Shown in pieces: positions 45,430 through 55,161 of a DNA stretch of 64,000 bases. Position 1 is the first letter of the stretch; every line of letters begins with the position of its first letter. Origin of the DNA: an uncultured Thermoleophilia bacterium (lineage in GTDB: Bacteria; Actinomycetota; Thermoleophilia; UBA2241); assembly GCA_963775255.1 (NCBI GenBank), contig CAVZIA010000012.1, forward strand, positions 15,919 to 79,918, read 5' to 3'. The position numbers were made by a program, and so were the translations under genes. A model generated the notes under the pieces. It saw nothing but the letters and a program-made list of their open reading frames with translations. It was not told the DNA's origin and did not search any database.

Positions 45430-47907
45430 TCAGCGGACCTTGACGGTCGTCACCACCGGCTTGGCGAGGCGATTGCCGCCGAGGTCGACCGCCTTGAACG
45501 TGACGGTGAAGTTCCCCCGTTTGCGCGACTTCCAGGCGCAGACGTGCTTGGCGCCCTGCTTGACCCAACCGAGATTCAGCCTGGCGACCGCGGCGCCAGC
45601 GGCGTTGGTCACCGTCGCGCCGACCTTGACCGTCGCGCTGTAGGCAGCCATGGGCGTGCAGGAGATCTTCGCGGTCTTGCGGCGCGCCACACGCACCATC
45701 TTGGGCACCTTCAGGCGAGGAGCGACAAGGTCGACAGTGACGACCCGGGCCGCGGAGGTGACCCCCAGCGCGCCGTCGGCCGTCAGCCTGAAGGTGTAGC
45801 GGCCGCTCGTCGCCGGCTCGCCCCCCTTGAGCTTGCCGTCCCAGGTCGCAACCTGCTTGCCCTTGGCGAGATGCCCGAGAACCACGGTGCGCGCCACGGA
45901 GCGCCCCCGGAGGATCGTGGCCGTGACGTCGGCGGCGCGGGTCAGCGTGAACGGCAGAGTCACGGCGTCGCGAACGCCATCGTCGTTCGGCGACAAGGTG
46001 ACGCGCGAGACCGCAGCCAGTGCAAGCGTGCGGTCGATCGTGACCTTGCGCCGCACGGCCGTGGTGTTGCCCGCCGCGTCACGGATCTCGACCTGGACGG
46101 TCGCGGCACCCTCGGGAGCAGGCGTCAGCTTGCCGCCCGAGAGGATACGGCCGTCCCACTTGGCCTTCTGCGCCGAGGCGGTGACCCAGGTCCAGGACGT
46201 CAGACGCCGAAGCGCCTTTCCGTCGCCGTCCACCACGGAGACCCGCGCCTGGACGGCCTCCGCCGGTGTGTAGCTGATCTGCGCCACGTCGCTCTGCCCA
46301 TCATCGTTGGGGCTGAACGGGTCGGGCGTCACGTCGGCGCTCTCCAGGTGCGGCGGGGCGGTGTCGAGCCGTACCGTGGCCGTCGCGGGACGCGCCACGC
46401 CGGCGGCGCTGGTGGCGTCGACCTGCAGGGTGTACGCGCCGTCGGGCAGCAGTCTGCCGTCGTCGTCCCGGCCGTCCCAGACGGTCTGGATGACCTTGCC
46501 CTCGCCGCCGTCGTGGCACACCAGCTGTCCGGCGGCGTCGCGGATCTCCAGCGTCCACGTCGCCTGCTGCGAGATGGTGAACCCGACGGTCACTTCGTCG
46601 TTGACGCCGTCGCCGTTGGGGCTGATGGCCGGGTCGTCCGGCATCAGGCCGTAGATCTTAGGCTGGCCGGTGCGCGCCACGACCTTGCGGACGTTGGGCA
46701 GTTGGGCGTACAGCCGGTTGCCGGGGCAGTCGGTGTAGTTGGCGTCGCGGTGCCCGGCGATGGCCGGGAGCGTCACGTGCTGGCCCGTCGCGTACTTCTC
46801 GCCGTAGCCGCACACCAGCGTCCCCGTGCCGAGCGGGTCGACGTGGTGGACGTCCAGCTTCCACTCGAGGAGCCGCTCGAGCGAGGTGACCGAGGCCGAC
46901 GTGGGATTGGCGTGCGTGAAGGTCCCGATGACGGAGATGCCGGTGCTCCCGGTGTTGAAGCCGAGCACCTGGGCGCCGATGACCCCACGGGAGACGCCTC
47001 CGTAGCGACCTTCGTAGATGACGCCGTACCGGTCGATGAGGAAGTTGTAGCCCACGTCGCTCCAGTGCAGCGACTTGGTGTGATAGGCGTAGACGCCGCG
47101 GACGACGGCGGGCGCCTCCGCGGCGGAGTAGTCGTTGCCGCTGTCCGTGTGGTGGACGAAGGCCACCTTGACCGGCGCGTAGTCGGGCTTGCCCGAGCGC
47201 CAGGATTCATTGGCGCCCCACTGCGCGCGGGTCACGATCTGGGGCTTGCTGGTCATCGCCGCCGCGGTCTGCGTGAAGTGAAGGCCGGCAATGGTGGCGG
47301 CGGTGCGCCGCACGGCCCCAAGGACCGTCGCGGCGGTGTCCGCGTCCTCGCTGCTGTTGATGGCGACCACGTGCACGTCGCGGAGGCGCGCCGGCGCGGG
47401 AGCGGCGCCCCCGGCGCGCTGCGCCGCGACCTGCACGTAGCGGCCGGCGCCGGTCCAGATGGGCTCGGTGAAGGCCTTCTCCGGCCCGCCCTCTTCAGCG
47501 GCGCGCTCGAGCGTGACGGTATACCAGCGGCTCCAGGCCCGGCCGTCCCGGCTCGTGCGCAGCAGCACCTGCACGTCGCCGGCGCGGGCCGGCGGTCTGC
47601 ACGTGACGCCGGCCATGGTGAAGGTCATGCCCGGGTCGACCGTGACGGCGCCGGCCGTCGGCGCCGCGCCGGCTGCCCCGGCGGCGCGGCCGGCTGCGCT
47701 CCGCGTGGTCGCGGTGGGCGCCACCGGTCCCACGGTGAGCCCGCCCTGCAGGACCGCCGTCCGCAGCGCGACGGGCGGGTCGTTCATCCACGCGGCCACA
47801 GCGTCGCTCAGACGCGGCGCAGCCCAGACCGCCGCGACCGCCGCGACGGTGCAGAGGATGGAGATTGCCGCTCGACGCGCGGCGCGGTTGTGAGGATCAG
47901 TCGCCAT
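45430..47907 (-). CDS. N-acetylmuramoyl-L-alanine amidase (Amidase_2/PGRP) with FlgD Ig-like repeats
   Basis: FVHHTDS, WSDVGYNFLIDRYG.IYEGR, GHRD..TDCPG; three SPN.DG..D / WDG repeats. Confidence 0.9.
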   Translation of the reverse strand: MATDPHNRAARRAAISILCTVAAVAAVWAAPRLSDAVAAWMNDPPVALRTAVLQGGLTVGPVAPTATTRSAAGRAAGAAGAAPTAGAVTVDPGMTFTMAGVTCRPPARAGDVQVLLRTSRDGRAWSRWYTVTLERAAEEGGPEKAFTEPIWTGAGRYVQVAAQRAGGAAPAPARLRDVHVVAINSSEDADTAATVLGAVRRTAATIAGLHFTQTAAAMTSKPQIVTRAQWGANESWRSGKPDYAPVKVAFVHHTDSGNDYSAAEAPAVVRGVYAYHTKSLHWSDVGYNFLIDRYGVIYEGRYGGVSRGVIGAQVLGFNTGSTGISVIGTFTHANPTSASVTSLERLLEWKLDVHHVDPLGTGTLVCGYGEKYATGQHVTLPAIAGHRDANYTDCPGNRLYAQLPNVRKVVARTGQPKIYGLMPDDPAISPNGDGVNDEVTVGFTISQQATWTLEIRDAAGQLVCHDGGEGKVIQTVWDGRDDDGRLLPDGAYTLQVDATSAAGVARPATATVRLDTAPPHLESADVTPDPFSPNDDGQSDVAQISYTPAEAVQARVSVVDGDGKALRRLTSWTWVTASAQKAKWDGRILSGGKLTPAPEGAATVQVEIRDAAGNTTAVRRKVTIDRTLALAAVSRVTLSPNDDGVRDAVTLPFTLTRAADVTATILRGRSVARTVVLGHLAKGKQVATWDGKLKGGEPATSGRYTFRLTADGALGVTSAARVVTVDLVAPRLKVPKMVRVARRKTAKISCTPMAAYSATVKVGATVTNAAGAAVARLNLGWVKQGAKHVCAWKSRKRGNFTVTFKAVDLGGNRLAKPVVTTVKVR

Positions 47908-48034: not shown

Positions 48035-49438
48035 TCAGCGCTGCGCCGCCTCGACGATCTTCGCGGTCTTGACGTGCTTGTCGACCTCGTCTTCTTTCTC
48101 GGCGCTCATGCAGCTCCAGATGGGGCTGTAGAGGCGGTCGACGGTCTTCGCGTACTGGTCGAGCTCGTCCTGCAGATCGGTGATCATTACGTCGCCGCCG
48201 GGATGCGTGGGATGCGCCCCGGTCGCCGCCATGATCTCGCGCGACTGCGTGGGGTTGTCGATCCACATGCACGGCATGAGCAGGTTGTGGTTGAAGGGCT
48301 GCCTGCTCCGGATCTCACGGAAGAAGTCCGAGTTGAACGCCTCCATGAGGCTGACGTCGCGGATGTTGTCGGTGGCGAAGTGCGTGAAGATGCACGGCTC
48401 CACCCAGCCCTCGCTGTTGATGTGCATGTAGTGCTTGCCGGCGATGCAGCCGTTGACCCACGGCGCGTCTCCCCAGAAGTCGACCGGGAAGAGAGCCTTG
48501 GTGTCACGGATGCGGTTGATGCCGACGCGGAACTCGTTGCGCTCCTGCGCGTTGAGCATGAGGCTCGTGTCGGGGTCGCGCCCCACCGGCATGTAGAGGA
48601 AGTGCCACGCAAGCAGCGCACCCTTGGCGATGAGCGGATCGACGAACTCGTCGCTGAGGAGCGCCTGCCAGGTGTTGCGCGTGACCGTGGCCGAGTAACC
48701 GAAGAGCACGCCCGCCTGACCGAGGTGGTCCATGTTCTCCATGACCTGATCGTGCACGCCGTCGCCGCGCCGCCGGTCGGTGAGCTCGGGAGAGCCCTCG
48801 AGACTCAGCATCGGGGCGATATTGCCGACCTTGGCCAGCTCGTCGATGGTGTCGTGATCGAGGAGCGTGCCGTTGGTGAACACCTGGAAGTAGGCGTCCT
48901 TGTTCTCCCGCGCGAAGTCGAGCAGCTCGTCCCACATGAACGGCTCGCCACCGAGCAGCGTGAACAGGTAGACACCCATGTCGTTGCCCTCGTCCACGAT
49001 CTTCTGCATCAGACGGCGGTCGAGGTCTTGATCGATGTTGTACTCCGACGCGTAGCAGCCCTCGCAAGCGAGGTTGCAGCGCATGGTGGGACTCATGAGG
49101 ATCGTGGTCGGCGCGTTGTTCCCCGTGTTCTCGATGAGCTTCTTCCGCTTGTCGACGCCGCGAAGAAGAGTGTTAACGATAAGACATTCGATGAATGCGT
49201 CGCGACAACGCGGACTGAGCTTCGAGGTCACGTGCTTGGCGATCAGGAGCGCCGGATGGTCGTCCTCCACCTTGTCCGCCACGAAGCGGACCGAGCTCTT
49301 GTATTGGTCTGGGGTGATCTTCTCAGCCAGGTTGAAGGCCTTGACGATCTTCGTCTTGTCGTCGCTGGCCGCCAGCTTGAGCATCTGGTTGATCACCTGC
49401 CGTTGTGCGGCAGTGTAGAGGCCGCCGGTACGGCTCAT
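48035..49438 (-). CDS. Radical SAM protein with a SPASM/twitch-like C-terminal domain
   Basis: CNLACEGC, GGEP, FTNGT, GCIAG...GWVEPC, NLLMPC; GGGAGG RBS. Confidence 0.9.
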   Translation of the reverse strand: MSRTGGLYTAAQRQVINQMLKLAASDDKTKIVKAFNLAEKITPDQYKSSVRFVADKVEDDHPALLIAKHVTSKLSPRCRDAFIECLIVNTLLRGVDKRKKLIENTGNNAPTTILMSPTMRCNLACEGCYASEYNIDQDLDRRLMQKIVDEGNDMGVYLFTLLGGEPFMWDELLDFARENKDAYFQVFTNGTLLDHDTIDELAKVGNIAPMLSLEGSPELTDRRRGDGVHDQVMENMDHLGQAGVLFGYSATVTRNTWQALLSDEFVDPLIAKGALLAWHFLYMPVGRDPDTSLMLNAQERNEFRVGINRIRDTKALFPVDFWGDAPWVNGCIAGKHYMHINSEGWVEPCIFTHFATDNIRDVSLMEAFNSDFFREIRSRQPFNHNLLMPCMWIDNPTQSREIMAATGAHPTHPGGDVMITDLQDELDQYAKTVDRLYSPIWSCMSAEKEDEVDKHVKTAKIVEAAQR

Positions 49439-49897
49439 CCATCTCCTCCCTTCTGTCGTCGCGCGCAAGGCGTCCATGCGTGCGCGCGTGCCCGTCGTTC
49501 AGTGGTGGGCCAAAGGAGAGGGACTGGGCGGCTCGACACCGCGGACTGCCGCCTGGACGCGTCGGCACCCCCTCCAACGGTCTGCGTATTGTGAGCCGAA
49601 GTCTATCACCGGGTCGACGGTACCGGACCAAACTTGCCCGAGAAATCCTGAGCAATGTCCGCCCGGGCGAAAGGTTTCGCGTCTCCCCATCGTTAGAGAG
49701 ATGACCGCGGACGATGTCCCGGTCGCCTCCAGCTGCCAGGCTGGCTGGCTGATCGCCCGCGCCGGGTCGCTCCACACCGGCGCGGGCGGTCGCTTTTCAC
49801 GGGCCGCCCCGGCGCTCGGCCCCATGAGTGAGATCCGCTCAAGCGCGGGCGTAGCCAGTCTGGAGACACTTCCTGTGCCAATCCGTCTAGGAAGCCC

Positions 49898-49925: not shown

Positions 49926-49935
49926 GGACTGCGAA

Positions 49936-50014
49936 CGACAAAGGCAAACCTGTCGTGAGGCAGGGACGCAAAGCCAGAGGTCTTGAAAATGGTCAAGATA
50001 GCTCGGTTGCCGAA
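49936..50014 (+). ncRNA. c-di-GMP-I (GEMM) riboswitch
   Basis: GGCAAA-CCTGTC-GTGA(GNRA)-GGCAGG-GACGCAAAGCC..GGTCT..AGATAGC..GTTGCC matches the class I consensus. Confidence 0.92.
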
Positions 50015-50147
50015 CCGGACCGCAGTCGCGGATCTCGATCTCAGCGACGAGCGCCTCTCGCTAGTCCCGCCTCGAGACACCGACACAGGCAAACGTCCGC
50101 CGGCCTTGAGCAAGTCGGCAGGCCAAAGGAGCACTGGTGTGGAGGCG

Positions 50148-51857
50148 ATGAAGATGCGAGCCAAGTACTTGTTCCTCGCGATCGCGCTGCTCTGTCTCCT
50201 GGCCTTGCCAACTACGGCACTGGCCAAGGACCACGGCGACAGCGCCAAGATCGACGACAGCGTGGCGACAGTGCTTGACGCCACCGGCGACGACCAGGCG
50301 ATCCCGGTCATCGTCTACACCGCACCGGGGGACGGGGGCGTCGTCGACAAAGCCGTCCCCGCCGGCGTTGACACCACCGACCTCTCGGATTTCGACGCCG
50401 TCGCGGCGTATCTGACGTCTGACGAGATCGACGCGCTGTCCAACAGCGACTCCGTCGACCTCATCGTCGCCGACAACCCGGTCTTCGGCCTCGACTACGC
50501 AAGCTCGATGGACATCACCAACTTGTCCATCGGACTCGACAGGGTCGCCTCCCCGGCCACCGGCGGTCCGGACGGAGCCGGCGTCGGTGTCGCGGTCGTG
50601 GACAGCGGGATCGCCACGACCTCCGACCTGGGCAGCAGCCGTATCGCCGCTTGGAAGGACTTCGTCAACAATCAGCGGAGGCCGTACGACGACGCCGGAC
50701 ACGGCACGTTCGTCGCCGGGCTCATCGCCGGCGACGGCACGGCGTCTCTGCCGCTCGACGGGGGCGGCTCCGCCACCGTACAGTTCCGCGGCGTGGCTCC
50801 AGCGGCCAACATCATCGGCATCAAGGTCCTCGACAGCACAGGCACCGGACGCTCCTCCTCGGTGATGTCCGGCATCCTCTGGGCGGTCGCGCACAAGAGG
50901 CAGTACAACATCCGGGTCCTCAACCTCTCCATCGGCGGCGATCCCGTCGCGCCGACCGACTTCGACCCGATCGCGCAGGCCGTCGAGCTGGCCTGGAAGA
51001 GCGGCATCACCGTGGTGTGCGCGGCCGGCAACGAAGGCGAGACCGGCCCCGGCGGTATCCTCTCCCCCGGCGACAGCCCCTACGTGATCACCGTGGGCGC
51101 CGCCGACACGCACCAGACGGCGTCGACCGGCGACGACACGGTCACCTACTACAGCTCGGTCGGTCCGACGCTCTGGGACGAGTACGCCAAGCCTGACCTG
51201 CTCGCCCCCGGCAACCGCCTGATCTCGGTGCGGGTGCCCGGCTCTTACATCGACACGAACTTCCCGCAGAACCTGATCGCGGTCTCCTCCTACGTGCCGG
51301 GCGCGCCCGACAACGCCGACCCGAGCTACCTGATGCTCTCCGGGACCAGCACCTCCGCCCCGGTGGACGCCGGCGTCGCGGCCCTCATGATCGGTGAGAA
51401 CCAGCGCCTGACCCCGGACGACGTCAAAGTGCGCATGATGAGCACGGCCGACCCGATCGCGGGCGTGAGCCGGTTCCGGCAGGGCGCCGGCCTGCTCGAC
51501 GCCGCCGGCGCACTGGCGAGCAACCAACACTCCAGAGGGTATGCACTTTCAGAGGATGTCGGTGACGGAACGACAATCCTTACACAGGACGACTACGCCA
51601 ACTGGGACCAGACCGCCTGGAGCAAGTACGGATGGACCAAGTTCCGCTGGACCAAGTTCCGCTGGACCAAGTTCCGCTGGACCAAGTTCCGGTGGACCAA
51701 GTTCCGGTGGACGGACGTGGCCTCGACCAAGTTCCGGTGGACGGACGTGGCGTGGACCAAGTTCCGGTGGACGGATTACCAGTCGACGAAGTTCCGGTGG
51801 ACCGCGGACTACGACTGGACGAAGTTCCGGTGGACGATCCTGATCGAAGGACAGTGA
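50148..51857 (+). CDS. Secreted S8 (subtilisin-like) serine peptidase with a C-terminal Trp-pentapeptide repeat tail
   Basis: Signal peptide ending ALA; catalytic triad VAVVDSG / GHGTFVAG / SGTSTSAP; oxyanion AAGN; start at ATG 50148 or 50154. Confidence 0.93.
   Translation: MKMRAKYLFLAIALLCLLALPTTALAKDHGDSAKIDDSVATVLDATGDDQAIPVIVYTAPGDGGVVDKAVPAGVDTTDLSDFDAVAAYLTSDEIDALSNSDSVDLIVADNPVFGLDYASSMDITNLSIGLDRVASPATGGPDGAGVGVAVVDSGIATTSDLGSSRIAAWKDFVNNQRRPYDDAGHGTFVAGLIAGDGTASLPLDGGGSATVQFRGVAPAANIIGIKVLDSTGTGRSSSVMSGILWAVAHKRQYNIRVLNLSIGGDPVAPTDFDPIAQAVELAWKSGITVVCAAGNEGETGPGGILSPGDSPYVITVGAADTHQTASTGDDTVTYYSSVGPTLWDEYAKPDLLAPGNRLISVRVPGSYIDTNFPQNLIAVSSYVPGAPDNADPSYLMLSGTSTSAPVDAGVAALMIGENQRLTPDDVKVRMMSTADPIAGVSRFRQGAGLLDAAGALASNQHSRGYALSEDVGDGTTILTQDDYANWDQTAWSKYGWTKFRWTKFRWTKFRWTKFRWTKFRWTDVASTKFRWTDVAWTKFRWTDYQSTKFRWTADYDWTKFRWTILIEGQ
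51603..51836 (+). repeat. Coding 15-bp tandem repeat (TGGACCAAGTTCCGC/G = WTKFR)
   Basis: WDQTA WSKYG (WTKFR)x5 WTDVA STKFR WTDVA WTKFR WTDYQ STKFR WTADYD WTKFR WT. Confidence 0.95.
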
Positions 51858-53395
51858 GCGCAGCAGAAGCGCAGCAGATACTGACGACTGAAGACGAGAC
51901 GGCCGTGCGGAAACGCACGGCCGTCTCCGTCTATGTGGGGCTCGTCTGCCTGGGCGCGGCCTCTGCCTCTGTCGCCGCCGCCCTCCACGAGCCGGCTTCC
52001 TTCACTCTCAGTCTCGTCGCCTTCATGATCCTCGCGACACTGACGGACCTCCGCGAGATCAAGCTTCCGTGGGTCGGCGACGTGACCCTATCGTTCGTCC
52101 CGGTGCTCGCCAGCCTCATCGTCCTGGGACTCTGGCCGGCCATGGCCGTCGCCGCCGTCAGCGGCATCACGGCGGCCTGGGTGACGCGCGACCCGATCAA
52201 GATCGCCTTCAACGTCGGCAATTACGTCATCTCCACGTACCTGGCCGGTCTTCTCTACCTGGCCTGGGCGCCTCTTGGCGGCGCGTTCATGACCAAGGTG
52301 CTGCCCACGTTCGGGGCGACGGTCGTCGACTTCGTCGCGCACACCGCCCTGCTCGCCGGGGTCATCGCGCTCTCCACGCAGGCAGGCGGAGCAGTGAAGG
52401 TCTGGCGGCAGAACTACCAATGGGCGCTCCCCGGCTACCTGGCGGGCTCGACGCTCGCGCTGCTGCTCGCCGCTCTCTATGTGTGGGCAGGCGTGCCCGG
52501 CATGCTGCTCGGCATCCCGCCGCTCTACCTCATCTACTACTCCTACGACATCTACGTGAAGCGTGCGAAGGAGAAGGTCACGTTCGACGCCGAGCGCGAC
52601 AGCTTCCACAAGGAGCTTGCCGACTCCACGGCCCTCCACGACGAGCTCCGCGCCGCCCAACTCAAGGTGGCGGCCGAGATCGAGCGCGCCCGGCGCATCC
52701 AGACTGACCTCCTCCCCACCTCGGTGCCGAAGGTCCAAGGTCTCGCACTGGACCAGCGGATCGAGTTCCTCGGCGAGATGGGCGGCGACTACTACGACTA
52801 CATCCCGTTCGGCGACGGGCGGCTGGGCATCGTCTGCGGCGACGTCATGGGCAAGGGGCTCGCCGCGGCGCTCATCATGGCCATGGCGCGGTCGCTGCTG
52901 CACGACGCCATCGCCCCCGGCAAGCAGGCCTCCGAGGTCATGGCCGAGGTCAACGACGGCTTGACGCGCGACCTCGAGGGCCAGCGCCTGCCGTACTTCC
53001 TCACGCTGGCCCTCGCGGTGTACGACCCCGGGACGCGCAAACTCGTCATCGCCGGCGGCGGCCACAACCCGGTGCTCATCGCCGACGGCGAGACGGTGAC
53101 GCAGGTACCGTCCCGCGGCGCCGCCCTCGGCGTGCGCACGGGGCTCCAGTTCCCGGAGGACGAGCTCACGCTGACCCCCGGCACCACCGTCGCGCTCTAC
53201 ACCGACGGCCTCACGGAGGCCCGCGACCCGGCCGGCACGCTGTTCGGCCTCGAGAGGCTGGAGAGCTCGCTGGAACGGTGTCAGACAGGCGGCATCCGTG
53301 ACACACTTGAAGGGGTCTGGGACGACATCGCCGCGTTCCGCGGCGAGAGCTCCTCGACCGACGACGCAACGCTCCTGCTGGCGCGCCTCACCTGA
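51854..53395 (+). CDS. Membrane-sensor PP2C/SpoIIE (RsbU-like) phosphatase
   Basis: GTGA overlap with the peptidase stop; multi-TM N-terminus with KIAFN (MASE9-like by eye); coiled coil; GGDYYD, GDVMGKG, YTDGLTEA, DDATL. Confidence 0.9.
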   Translation: MSAAEAQQILTTEDETAVRKRTAVSVYVGLVCLGAASASVAAALHEPASFTLSLVAFMILATLTDLREIKLPWVGDVTLSFVPVLASLIVLGLWPAMAVAAVSGITAAWVTRDPIKIAFNVGNYVISTYLAGLLYLAWAPLGGAFMTKVLPTFGATVVDFVAHTALLAGVIALSTQAGGAVKVWRQNYQWALPGYLAGSTLALLLAALYVWAGVPGMLLGIPPLYLIYYSYDIYVKRAKEKVTFDAERDSFHKELADSTALHDELRAAQLKVAAEIERARRIQTDLLPTSVPKVQGLALDQRIEFLGEMGGDYYDYIPFGDGRLGIVCGDVMGKGLAAALIMAMARSLLHDAIAPGKQASEVMAEVNDGLTRDLEGQRLPYFLTLALAVYDPGTRKLVIAGGGHNPVLIADGETVTQVPSRGAALGVRTGLQFPEDELTLTPGTTVALYTDGLTEARDPAGTLFGLERLESSLERCQTGGIRDTLEGVWDDIAAFRGESSSTDDATLLLARLT

Positions 53396-53437: not shown

Positions 53438-54214
53438 ATGGGCGATCAGACGAGCGCGTTGCCGGCTTCGCTGCAGGTGTATCGCTACCGGGCCGGCGCC
53501 GAGCGCGTCGAGGCCGTCATCGGCGAGCTGGAGCCGGGGCTGCCGCAGGAGGACCTCGTCGCGCACGCGAGCGAGGCGCTCCGACGCGAGACCTTCATGT
53601 GCTACGCGGTGTCGCAGCCGGACGACTTCGTGGCCGACGAGCTCTGCTTCGTGCCCCAGGGCGACCGCTGCGACATACTCAGCATCCGCACCAACGGCTG
53701 GGAGCGCCATCACGGCGACCACCGCCGCAGCCTGGTGGAGATCCTGAACAACCTGGCGGCGGCCGTCGCCTGCGGCAAGCTGCGCATCCTCGACCCCGGC
53801 GAGCTTGCGGTCGGACGGGAGGAGGGGCACGCCGTCCGCGAGTTCACGATCCGCGACACGACCGAGCTCCAGCGTGCGCGGGAGTCGGTCGACGAGGTGC
53901 TCCAGCAGGCGGGAGTGAACGACATCAACCGCCAGCGCACCATCCTGTGCATCTCCGAGGCCGTCACCAACATGCTCCTGCACGGCGGCGGGCACGGGGA
54001 CATGGTGGTCCGCCGCCTCCCCGACCGTCTACGGTTCATCGTCGCCGACGAGGGTCCCGGGCTGAGCTTCCTCAACTGGATCGAGCCGCCCTCCAAGGGC
54101 GGTCAGGCGTCCATGGGCTACGGCTACAAGATCATCCTCGACTACCTCGACGCCGTCGCCCTGCATACCGGAACCGGCGGTACTACGTTACTATTGGACC
54201 GCACGACCAACTGA
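53438..54214 (+). CDS. RsbW/SpoIIAB-like anti-sigma kinase with an N-terminal extension
   Basis: GAGGGAG RBS; ISEAVTN..LHG, DEGPG, MGYG; GHKL motifs confined to the C-terminal half. Confidence 0.82.
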   Translation: MGDQTSALPASLQVYRYRAGAERVEAVIGELEPGLPQEDLVAHASEALRRETFMCYAVSQPDDFVADELCFVPQGDRCDILSIRTNGWERHHGDHRRSLVEILNNLAAAVACGKLRILDPGELAVGREEGHAVREFTIRDTTELQRARESVDEVLQQAGVNDINRQRTILCISEAVTNMLLHGGGHGDMVVRRLPDRLRFIVADEGPGLSFLNWIEPPSKGGQASMGYGYKIILDYLDAVALHTGTGGTTLLLDRTTN

Positions 54215-54227
54215 GGCAGGAGACTCA

Positions 54228-54539
54228 ATGCTGCGCACTTCGATCGCTCAGGGCCCGGCGCCCACCGTCTACCTCGCCGGCGAGATGGACCTCGACTGCG
54301 CCGACACCTTGCGCGAAGCCGTCACCGAGGCCGCCCGGGGCGCACAGATGGTCGCGCTGGACTTCGCCAACGTGGAGTTCATCGACTCGTCCGGCACCGG
54401 GATCTTCGTGCGCCTGGCGCTCGACCTGAAGAGCCAGGGCACACCGCTGGTGGCCCGCAACCTCTCCCCCGCCGTGCGCGGCGTGTTCGACATGCTGCGC
54501 GTACGCGAGCTGGTCGGCGACGAGGTCTTCCCGGACTAA
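54228..54539 (+). CDS. STAS-domain anti-anti-sigma factor (RsbV/SpoIIAA-like)
   Basis: LAGEMD, LDFANVEFIDSSG (phosphoacceptor Ser); AGGAG RBS. Confidence 0.9.
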   Translation: MLRTSIAQGPAPTVYLAGEMDLDCADTLREAVTEAARGAQMVALDFANVEFIDSSGTGIFVRLALDLKSQGTPLVARNLSPAVRGVFDMLRVRELVGDEVFPD

Positions 54540-54835
54540 CTGCGCCTGAGCGGGCCCGTCCCCGCCAGCACGACGATCGTGGCCGCGTCAACGCAGTCGC
54601 TGATGCTCGAGACGTAGGCCTCCCCGGCCAACTGCGACCCCTCCCTCGTGACCATGTTCAGGGCCATGCACGACCCGTCACTCAGGTGCACGCGGAACTC
54701 CTCCGTGCTGGCGGGTGACTCCACGCGCAGTGACCAGTAGGGCTCCCGCCCCATCTCCTCTTCGCTGACAGAGGCGCTGAGGAACCCCACGTCGACGCGG
54801 TCGTGCTTGAGTCTGAGTAACCTCTTGGACTGCAT
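54536..54835 (-). CDS. Hypothetical protein (99 aa)
   Basis: AGAGG RBS; convergent with and overlapping the STAS stop; own sigma28-like promoter. Confidence 0.55.
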   Translation of the reverse strand: MQSKRLLRLKHDRVDVGFLSASVSEEEMGREPYWSLRVESPASTEEFRVHLSDGSCMALNMVTREGSQLAGEAYVSSISDCVDAATIVVLAGTGPLRRS

Positions 54836-55085: not shown

Positions 55086-55161
55086 TGGTGGCGAGGGTCA
55101 GAATTGAACTGACGACACCACGATTTTCAGTCGTGTGCTCTACCAACTGAGCTACCTCGCC
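55086..55161 (-). tRNA. tRNA-Phe (GAA)
   Basis: GGCGAGG/CCTCGCC acceptor stem, AGCTCAGTTGGTAGAGC D-arm, CTGAAAA anticodon loop, TTCAA T-loop, encoded CCA; 76 nt. Confidence 0.97.

Follow-up and report, generated by a model that had tools for sequence, protein, structure and literature searches.

The subject of this analysis is a tryptophan-periodic pentapeptide repeat encoded in a 64,000-nucleotide stretch of contig CAVZIA010000012.1 (assembly GCA_963775255.1, an uncultured Thermoleophilia bacterium), and this whole stretch is called the window throughout. We found that the repeat is the C-terminal module of a secreted S8 subtilase and not a free peptide gene. The tail is kept in frame across the order, its units are held identical by selection, and the gene that follows it codes for a membrane sensor; an earlier sequence-only reading of this DNA had missed both the S8-protease specificity of the tail and the ever-present sensor gene behind it. 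With somewhat less than even confidence, we propose that the tail is a cationic aromatic tether which would hold the protease at the membrane surface beside this sensor. The parts of the protease gene are listed below.

50148..51857, + strand: gene of a pre-pro S8 subtilase, 569 amino acids and a stop codon (PF00082, 151.4 bits vs a gathering score of 21.8, E 4e-44)
50148..50225, + strand: putative Sec-type signal peptide MKMRAKYLFLAIALLCLLALPTTALA, recognized by reading the sequence
50574..51491, + strand: S8 catalytic domain, with the codons of Asp at 50601, His at 50700, the oxyanion Asn at 51030 and Ser at 51348 (Pfam stretch 198-503 of P0001)
51561..51617, + strand: conserved lead-in GDGTTILTQDDYANWDQTA, 5′ of the array (G472, G474 and W486 invariant, Y483 and W491 at least 90% in alignment A1)
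51618..51830, + strand: Trp-periodic array of 14 units (translation, Tandem Repeats Finder)
51831..51854, + strand: C-terminal cap WTILIEGQ (conserved ending in homologues)

The start codon is most likely the ATG at 50148, which has a GGAGG Shine-Dalgarno sequence upstream and a typical signal peptide downstream, and the consensus of 76 homologues begins at the same Met. Reading from the alternative TTG at 49983 would pass through the riboswitch described below. Counted from Met 50148, the residues D152, H185, N295 and S401 were present in all 76 aligned sequences, in the motifs VDSG, HGT, GNEG and GTS. The I9 inhibitor propeptide gave a weak match (14.1 bits vs a cut-off of 21.2), and a weak match was also obtained in 41 of the 76 relatives. 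Scanning of the subtilase with NCBIfam returned generic S8 matches only, all below their cut-offs; no Pfam or NCBIfam model covers the tail, and the choline-binding, GW/SH3b, LysM, SLH and CWB2 families gave no Pfam match at E 1 in the subtilase. The closest solved catalytic domain is that of Tk-SP (PDB 3AFG, 9UES; E 1e-44), and the order of propeptide, S8 domain and non-catalytic C-terminal extension is the layout of Tk-SP and the AprX-type subtilases. It may be noted that the C-terminal extension of Tk-SP is a beta-jelly-roll and not a short-unit repeat, that the window's tail finds nothing in PDB by sequence (0 matches at E 10), and that we know of no linkage of Tk-SP to a sensor gene.

On translation of the + strand open reading frame (ORF; 49983/50148-51857), the tail reads NWDQTA-WSKYG-WTKFR x5-WTDVA-STKFR-WTDVA-WTKFR-WTDYQ-STKFR-WTADYD-WTKFR-WTILIEGQ-stop. 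This gives 15 units between 51618 and 51854, namely WSKYG, 7 WTKFR, 2 STKFR, two WTDVA, WTDYQ, WTADYD and the cap, and it bears out the unit count (7 WTKFR and 2 STKFR) and the distal separators reported by the sequence-only reading, WTDVA being present twice. That reading had placed the tail at 51603..51857, where the repeat indeed lies, but the start at 51603 falls inside the conserved lead-in; the lead-in unit WSKYG begins at 51618 and the first WTKFR at 51633. The five-residue register, earlier called strict, is almost but not fully so, because WTADYD has six residues. Both of the synonymous variants it had pointed out are real (ACC 7 and ACG 2; CGC 3 and CGG 6), and the nine core units vary only at these two codons and by TGG to TCG in both of the S units. 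Tandem Repeats Finder described the array with a period of 15 (10.4 copies, score 161) or of 30 (score 180).

The remaining probability that the array is an assembly artefact or a non-coding repeat is negligible in our estimate. Such an origin would fit the break of the short-read contigs within the five identical leading units and the occasional reading of the array in a wrong frame by gene callers. Against it, third-position G+C is 0.94 in the coding frame of the array alone, vs 0.33 and 0.56 in the other two frames (0.90 in the protease body), and 100 database proteins and most genomes of the order have the array in the coding frame and between conserved flanks. Also, overlapping pieces of short public contigs from runs X1 and X2, which are possibly from the source sample, match 51577-51881 with 0 differences, so that the distal part is matched exactly; no contig covers the whole array, and since no X1 or X2 contig reaches across the run of five identical units at its start, the count of these is provisional. 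Contigs from RNA libraries (X15) cover only repeat units at 95-99% likeness and possibly come from relatives. Wrong-frame calls of the array (DQVPVD... or GPSSGG...; P0101, P0121 and P0122; in the window 51632-53395 on the + strand) give extended downstream genes or chimeric proteins, and therefore some database PP2C entries of the family have wrong N-termini.

A word-indexed database search with query residues 525-624 returned 100 proteins. All 100 proteins with the tail have PF00082, and the named ones are AprX or S8 peptidases of Thermoleophilia. P0074 (frame-shifted near its end) and P0101 (a downstream gene in the wrong frame) were set aside before the counting of units, which was done on n=99. 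The commonest units among these 99 homologues are WTKFR (527), WTKFK (107), WTKFA (56), WAKFR (47), WTKYR (24) and STKFR (22). In 98 of the 99 there are 4 to 12 core units per protein with a median of 9, and in P0096 there are 0 by motif since its units are WTGVR. The C-terminus W-[TA]-x-L-x-x-G-Q is found in 98 of the 99, and the five-residue register is kept at 722 of 770 core-to-core spacings. Over 977 parsed units, position 2 is T in 85% and A in 7%, and position 4 is F in 66%, Y in 17%, V in 12% and I in 3%; the unit parser halts early at some six-residue units, so the unit totals per protein are lower bounds. As many as 24 of 29 six-residue units sit two or four units ahead of the cap.

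The window's own genome has the tail at one place only. Among genus relatives it was found in 21 of 24 genomes, within the order 72 of 89 genomes, from 7 of 11 genera, have it in frame and between conserved flanks, and in six other families of the class 0 of 16 genomes have it. Loss of the tail or of its frame in orthologues, which the sequence-only reading had held out as the outcome that would count against it, is thus not the rule in the order, and the comparison of copy number and unit sequence that it had suggested gave 4 to 12 cores with lineage-specific unit types. In other genera the arrays consist of one unit type throughout (WSKYA, WTKYS, WTRYR or WTKFA) and end in a similar cap (WSVVIDGQ, WTTMIDGQ, WTTLLQGQ, WSVLIDGR). 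From the unit types found across genera (WTKFR, WTKFK, WTKFA, WTKYR, WSKYA, WTKYS, WTRYR), the general unit is therefore W-[TS]-[KR]-[FY]-x. The G088 orthologue (L093 830-2344, contig C100; 504 amino acids) ends in ...KWDKYAWTILIDGQ, that is, in the lead-in and cap with no core repeat, and a PP2C gene still overlaps its end; either the array was genuinely lost there or the assembly has collapsed. In three further loci, L024, L031 and L033 (G002, G012 and G001, assembled in 7, 10 and ~40 contigs), the catalytic part is out of frame with an intact tail, where the frame breaks could be insertion or deletion errors or mark pseudogenes, and in L039 the sequence stops early within the array, possibly by an assembly error. 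Two other proteins with related units were seen: P0153 (1031 amino acids), a much larger S8 protease with an N-terminal right-handed beta-helix region and ~35 C-terminal WTGID units, and P0137, a non-protease surface protein with Listeria-Bacteroides repeats that has W-S-K-[CFIL]-D units.

The sequence-only reading had suggested selection at the protein level from the two synonymous sites of the window, and the comparison across species shows this far more strongly. Within one protein the same peptide unit is written by 2 to 6 different 15-mers. Five WTRYR units occur in 4 DNA versions that vary at 6 sites, all of them synonymous; 6 WSKYA units have 4 DNA versions with 5 variable sites, and 11 WTKFA units have 4 DNA versions, in both cases with no amino-acid differences. 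Position 5 is constant within a protein yet R, K, A, S or Q between lineages. Units that stay identical despite diverged codons are therefore held so by purifying selection, and not by recent duplication alone.

The genes and elements around the protease gene were then identified as given here.

49934..50015, + strand: riboswitch aptamer of the GEMM-I clan, best model c-di-GMP-I-GGC (RF03167; 73.6 bits vs a gathering score of 59)
51854..53395, + strand: membrane PP2C/SpoIIE-type phosphatase, 513 amino acids, with a polytopic MASE9-like N-terminus (SpoIIE PF07228, E 7e-48)
53438..54214, + strand: RsbW-like anti-sigma-type kinase (HATPase_c_2 by Pfam; syntenic in 22 of 22 loci)
54228..54539, + strand: STAS-domain antagonist protein (STAS_2, E 3e-14; syntenic in 22 of 22 loci)
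48035..49477, - strand: divergent radical S-adenosylmethionine (SAM)/SPASM gene, 480 amino acids (Pfam Radical_SAM and SPASM), a neighbouring gene
45430..47907, - strand: secreted N-acetylmuramoyl-L-alanine amidase with FlgD-Ig domains (Pfam; adjacent in 22 of 22 loci)

The GTG start of the PP2C gene at 51854 overlaps the protease stop codon TGA at 51855-51857 (GTGA), and the order protease, PP2C, kinase and STAS was the same in all 22 loci that have the protease gene. In two 98%-complete genomes (G060 and G061) we found neither the tail nor a full-length PP2C orthologue. The PP2C protein has hydrophobic segments between residues 22 and 222, and its N-terminus matches MASE9 (PF20972) weakly (19.6 bits, within a range of 17-20, vs a cut-off of 24.3). 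In the available part of their preprint, Galperin and Chou (bioRxiv 10.1101/2021.11.05.467447) present MASE9 as a promiscuous input domain of eight membrane segments with short, poorly conserved outer loops, expect its ligand site within the membrane, and describe HD-GYP and GGDEF-EAL outputs, with no ligand or partner protease named in that part. The domain found here is like it in being a promiscuous membrane input with varied outputs (of its counterparts in other families, three score above the cut-off), and differs in that it heads a PP2C phosphatase in this family and PAS histidine kinases elsewhere.

The aptamer lies in the 5′ leader of the protease operon, 133 nucleotides ahead of the start codon, and supports the remark of the sequence-only reading on control by cyclic di-GMP (c-di-GMP). 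In two samplings of relatives' loci in the order, 6 of 8 and 4 of 5 had the same aptamer ahead of the protease gene, and in a blastn comparison with distant genera it alone among the intergenic DNA is conserved. In one genus of the order (L042 9743-9824), the aptamer is matched best by the canonical c-di-GMP-I model (RF01051, 65.9 bits) and not by the GGC variant, and the two models may not separate ligand classes in this order. No intrinsic terminator or sigma-70 promoter was found in the leader, and the whole leader folds no better than shuffles (z = -1.0). c-di-GMP-I riboswitches control secreted proteases, for example the zinc protease PPEP-1 of C. difficile. The locus resembles that arrangement in that the 5′ leader of its secreted protease gene contains an aptamer from this clan, and differs from it in that the best model is the GGC variant and the regulated unit also includes a partner-switching cassette. 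As regards the ligand of the c-di-GMP-I-GGC variant, no report was found in the literature searched, including the available part of PMC7266159.

To look beyond the order, a DNA pattern of seven TGG codons spaced by 15 nucleotides was run over 401 sampled Actinomycetota genomes and was present in 120 of them, a tally that includes 8 genomes flagged as unpublished, none of whose loci were used. A control with the reversed pattern also matches many genomes, and hence some of the matches are low-complexity DNA. In 21 of the 30 loci returned outside the order, the ORF with the array also codes for an S8 domain immediately before it; the remaining 9 are either repeats (out of frame or of low complexity) or a fragment at a contig end. 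We refetched 17 of the 21 S8 loci with their flanks, omitting four on short contigs. In 16 of the 17, the protease gene is followed directly on its strand by an ORF that starts between ~29 nucleotides before and 185 nucleotides after the protease stop (by a first-start rule) and that codes for an N-terminal membrane region joined to PAS-/GAF-HisKA-HATPase (10 loci) or GGDEF-EAL (6 loci). Seven of the 17 downstream N-termini match MASE9 (3 above the cut-off and four weakly), and a hidden Markov model (HMM) of the membrane domain of the window's family matches 8 downstream ORFs. The unit types in these other actinobacterial families include WAARQ, WSGTS, WDGRV, WHGAN, WSSSS, WSGQA and WDGMS, with only the Trp in common. 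A riboswitch was found upstream of the Trp-tailed subtilases of other families in 0 of 13 upstream pieces, whose reach to the 5′ end of the gene is unconfirmed.

The composition of the tail is the starting point of the tether that we propose. Net charge is +10 across the 94-residue tail region (array with its flanks) vs -32 across the other 449 mature residues, and each unit contributes one Trp, one further aromatic residue (Phe or Tyr) and one basic residue (Lys or Arg). Trp has affinity for membrane interfaces. The basic tail could thus serve as an additive, multivalent tether for a strongly acidic enzyme body, and the protease would be held on the outer surface of the cytoplasmic membrane or in the innermost envelope. 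There its neighbour would be the polytopic MASE9-like PP2C phosphatase, a product of the same mRNA, and extracellular proteolysis or occupancy would feed the cassette of PP2C, RsbW-like kinase and STAS partner switching, with the entire unit switched by the GEMM-I (c-di-GMP-type) riboswitch. The membrane binding and the contact with the sensor are what we infer from the features above. One of the three roles offered by the sequence-only reading, that of cationic Trp/Arg membrane-active peptides, is plausible in this tethering form, but nothing supports an antimicrobial role. We consider free antimicrobial Trp/Arg peptides, together with a functional amyloid, very unlikely: the composition (Trp, Phe, Lys, Arg) is all that speaks for them, while no amyloid accessory, immunity or export genes were seen among the neighbours, the tail is covalently part of the enzyme, the WTKFA and WSKYA units of relatives carry one charge, and the WSGTS units of other families are polar.

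The identity of the units within a protein admits a different explanation, whereby the protease would cut its own tail, for instance after the aromatic of each unit, and the sensor would read the units within the membrane; this we consider possible but doubtful. Its detailed form, with Trp in P4 and Phe or Tyr in P1 and with lineage-specific, lipophilic and cationic pentapeptides such as x-W-T-K-F as products, deserves the same doubt. Subtilisins favour hydrophobic P1 and P4 residues, Bacillus Phr pentapeptides are released by subtilisin, Epr and Vpr, and AgrC and ComD are polytopic sensors of peptides. Self-cutting best explains why units are identical within a protein, under purifying selection with drifting synonymous sites, and different between lineages, where the unit type switches as a block. 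It also agrees with the variable core copy number (4 to 12, and possibly 0 in one orthologue), with the presence of the array only on an active protease, with the strict linkage to a sensor gene with interchangeable outputs, and with a sensor type that, in the available part of its description, is thought to bind its ligand within the membrane. On the other side, the window's genus has the spacers WTDVA, WTDYQ and WTADYD at conserved places, the conserved lead-in and cap resemble those of a folded domain, the zero-repeat orthologue retains the sensor, and there is a weak similarity to pentapeptide-repeat proteins. The multi-core precursor with acidic spacers, another of the roles offered earlier, survives only in this changed form, with the units cut from the protease's own tail.

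Tandem-copy precursors cut by S8 proteases are the known systems closest to such self-cutting. Yeast alpha-factor, made in tandem, is cut by the S8 protease Kex2, and the cyanobactin precursor PatE is handled with PatA/PatG. Identical short units, acidic spacers, lineage-specific unit sequences, an S8 protease and a sensor nearby are common to these and to the locus. The differences are that here the units belong to the protease itself, that the array has a conserved cap and lead-in, and that the sensor is a MASE9-like PP2C and not a G protein-coupled receptor, a Rap protein or a histidine kinase.

As to the fold, the tail may form a beta-solenoid like that of pentapeptide repeats, to judge from its period and residue pattern. 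Proteins of PF00805 and PF13599, e.g. MfpA, Qnr and Rfr32, form an Rfr-type right-handed quadrilateral beta-helix. Among 76 relatives, 48 gave a match to Pentapeptide_4 (PF13599) and 9 to PF00805, in most cases under the threshold; the PF00805 cut-off of 20.2 bits was passed by 2 of 10 relatives tested (P0105 with 25.1 and P0026 with 21.8), and a search of the window's own genome with PF00805 gave no match. An exhaustive HMMER search with the tail over 1.84 billion representatives gave 217 matches at E 1e-3, of which 49 were scanned: 6 were true PF00805 proteins and 3 were S8 proteases, and most of the others were unrelated period-5 repeats or had no family. By BLAST, T-K-F-R-W of the tail aligns in register with A-D-L-R-W of one true pentapeptide-repeat protein, which puts Thr in the inward place for a small residue and Phe in the central one. 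A second register, with Phe inward at i-2 and Trp at the centre, is equally possible and fits the tails of other families better (A-N-W-H-G, T-S-W-S-G). The 977 parsed units follow the pattern of pentapeptide-repeat proteins, with five residues, hydrophobic in the centre and small at i-2 (T-x-F). In the pentapeptide consensus, position i-1 is Asp or Asn and position i+2 is Gly or some other small residue. The tail has Lys (73% of units) and a nearly invariant Trp (95%) at these two positions instead, and only the spacer units (T-D-V-A) fit the consensus there. It also differs from those proteins, which are known mainly as acidic DNA mimics of the cytoplasm, in being basic, exported and fused to a protease, in the identity of its units in any one protein, and in having one six-residue unit. 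The last of the roles offered by the sequence-only reading, a solenoid or amyloid scaffold, divides: the solenoid has weak sequence support in the 48 of 76 sub-threshold HMM matches and the in-register alignment, and the amyloid is unsupported.

A solenoid could serve another purpose. A pentapeptide-type beta-helix might bind a repeating anionic wall polymer or peptidoglycan and so retain the protease in the wall, with no direct role for the sensor, and the retained protease would perhaps control the neighbouring amidase; we think this unlikely. Wall-bound S8 proteases such as Bacillus WprA regulate autolysins. Such a function would agree with the period of 5 with small i-2 (Thr) and hydrophobic i (Phe, Tyr, Val, Ile), with the pentapeptide HMM matches and alignment, with the basic surface charge, and with an amidase gene adjacent in all of the 22 loci. 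Three points speak against it: a genome has the module once, on this protease and no other, whereas known wall-binding repeats serve several proteins of a genome; no Pfam wall-binding family is matched; and the downstream sensor gene, invariant across families with unrelated unit chemistry, would be left unexplained.

Several of the results weigh against the membrane tether itself. The zero-repeat orthologue of G088 keeps the lead-in, the cap and the following PP2C gene, and if it is no assembly collapse the array is dispensable. The outer loops of the polytopic sensor are very short for the docking of a folded domain. Constancy at position 5 within a protein is not predicted by a simple sticky tether, and discrete equivalent units suit it better. 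Charge is not the general principle because the WSGTS, WSSSS and WAARQ tails are not cationic. With regard to the fold, the window tail fails both of the pentapeptide models (13.6-13.8 bits vs 38 for PF13599 and no PF00805 match at E 1), and many of the tail's matches are merely other period-5 repeats.

In the literature search we found no description of Trp-repeat tails on subtilases, nor of a c-di-GMP-type riboswitch tied to a partner-switching cascade through an extracellular protease. The S8 protease and the period-5 repeat are of already known kinds; what is new is that the variant is exported, basic and Trp-laddered, that it is joined to a protease, and that it stands in a fixed pairing with a membrane sensor, in the window with a PP2C partner-switching cassette under a GEMM-I riboswitch. 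The locus thereby connects a c-di-GMP-type riboswitch to a partner-switching cascade via an extracellular protease. If the tail is a pentapeptide-repeat helix, it would represent an exported and basic form, with a Trp ladder, of a fold otherwise met chiefly in acidic DNA mimics of the cytoplasm, and if it is cut into peptides the locus would be a self-contained factory of peptide signals. Many bacterial signalling proteins carry polytopic sensor domains, MASE9 among them, for which the locus offers a concrete candidate partner, namely a secreted protease with a Trp-repeat tail under strong selection that is encoded immediately upstream of a sensor, whose outputs have been swapped between lineages (PP2C here, histidine kinases or GGDEF-EAL enzymes elsewhere). 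A bolder generalization, to which we give only limited credence, is that Trp-tailed subtilases and adjacent sensors form a widespread signalling pair, the tail being the ligand (tethered, or as self-cut peptides) of MASE9-type and related sensors. If so, each sensor would relay to its own output, which is PP2C partner switching under a c-di-GMP riboswitch in the window and a histidine kinase or a c-di-GMP synthase/phosphodiesterase elsewhere.

The radical SAM gene next to the operon raises one more possibility, which we regard as highly improbable, that the tail is like the substrate of a ribosomally synthesized and post-translationally modified peptide (RiPP) pathway, in which the radical SAM/SPASM enzyme would cross-link Trp and Lys (or another aromatic motif) before export. 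The gene is adjacent to the protease gene in 18 of the 22 loci, and the units contain W-x-K and K-x-x-W spacings. Maturases of streptide, darobactin and triceptides act on motifs of this type. Yet the obligate co-occurrence of precursor and maturase fails, as tail and enzyme each occur alone: the tail is found with no radical SAM match at E 1e-40 in G003 (93% complete), G069 (97%), G096 and G103, and the radical SAM gene is found without the tail in 8 genomes, in two of which (G060 and G061) the operon is absent as well. The enzyme also stays below every NCBIfam maturase cut-off, the best score being 80 bits vs a cut-off of 500 (NirJ2) and the best 25 of 64 matched models all falling below their cut-offs. 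Further, the would-be precursor is a 569-residue Sec-exported enzyme and not a short leader-core peptide, and the region between the radical SAM gene and the riboswitch has no small ORF conserved beyond the nearest relatives. A cross-linking role is thus unlikely because the gene separates from the tail and reaches no maturase cut-off, and the separate occurrence argues strongly against the RiPP version of the multi-core precursor with the neighbouring enzyme as its maturase.

The radical SAM/SPASM protein has ~120 extra N-terminal residues, and matches to it were found in 76 of the 89 order genomes at 53-95% identity; its gene is retained in two reduced genomes of 1.7-1.8 Mb that do not have the protease operon. 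The amidase (amidase_2, 825 amino acids, with FlgD-Ig and CHU_C-like repeats) adjoins the operon divergently even where the radical SAM gene is absent. At the other end of the operon, an ORF of 99 amino acids with no Pfam family (54536-54835, - strand) is convergent to the STAS gene in most relatives' loci, and it is followed by a transfer RNA gene (55089-55161, - strand) and a TrkA-like gene.

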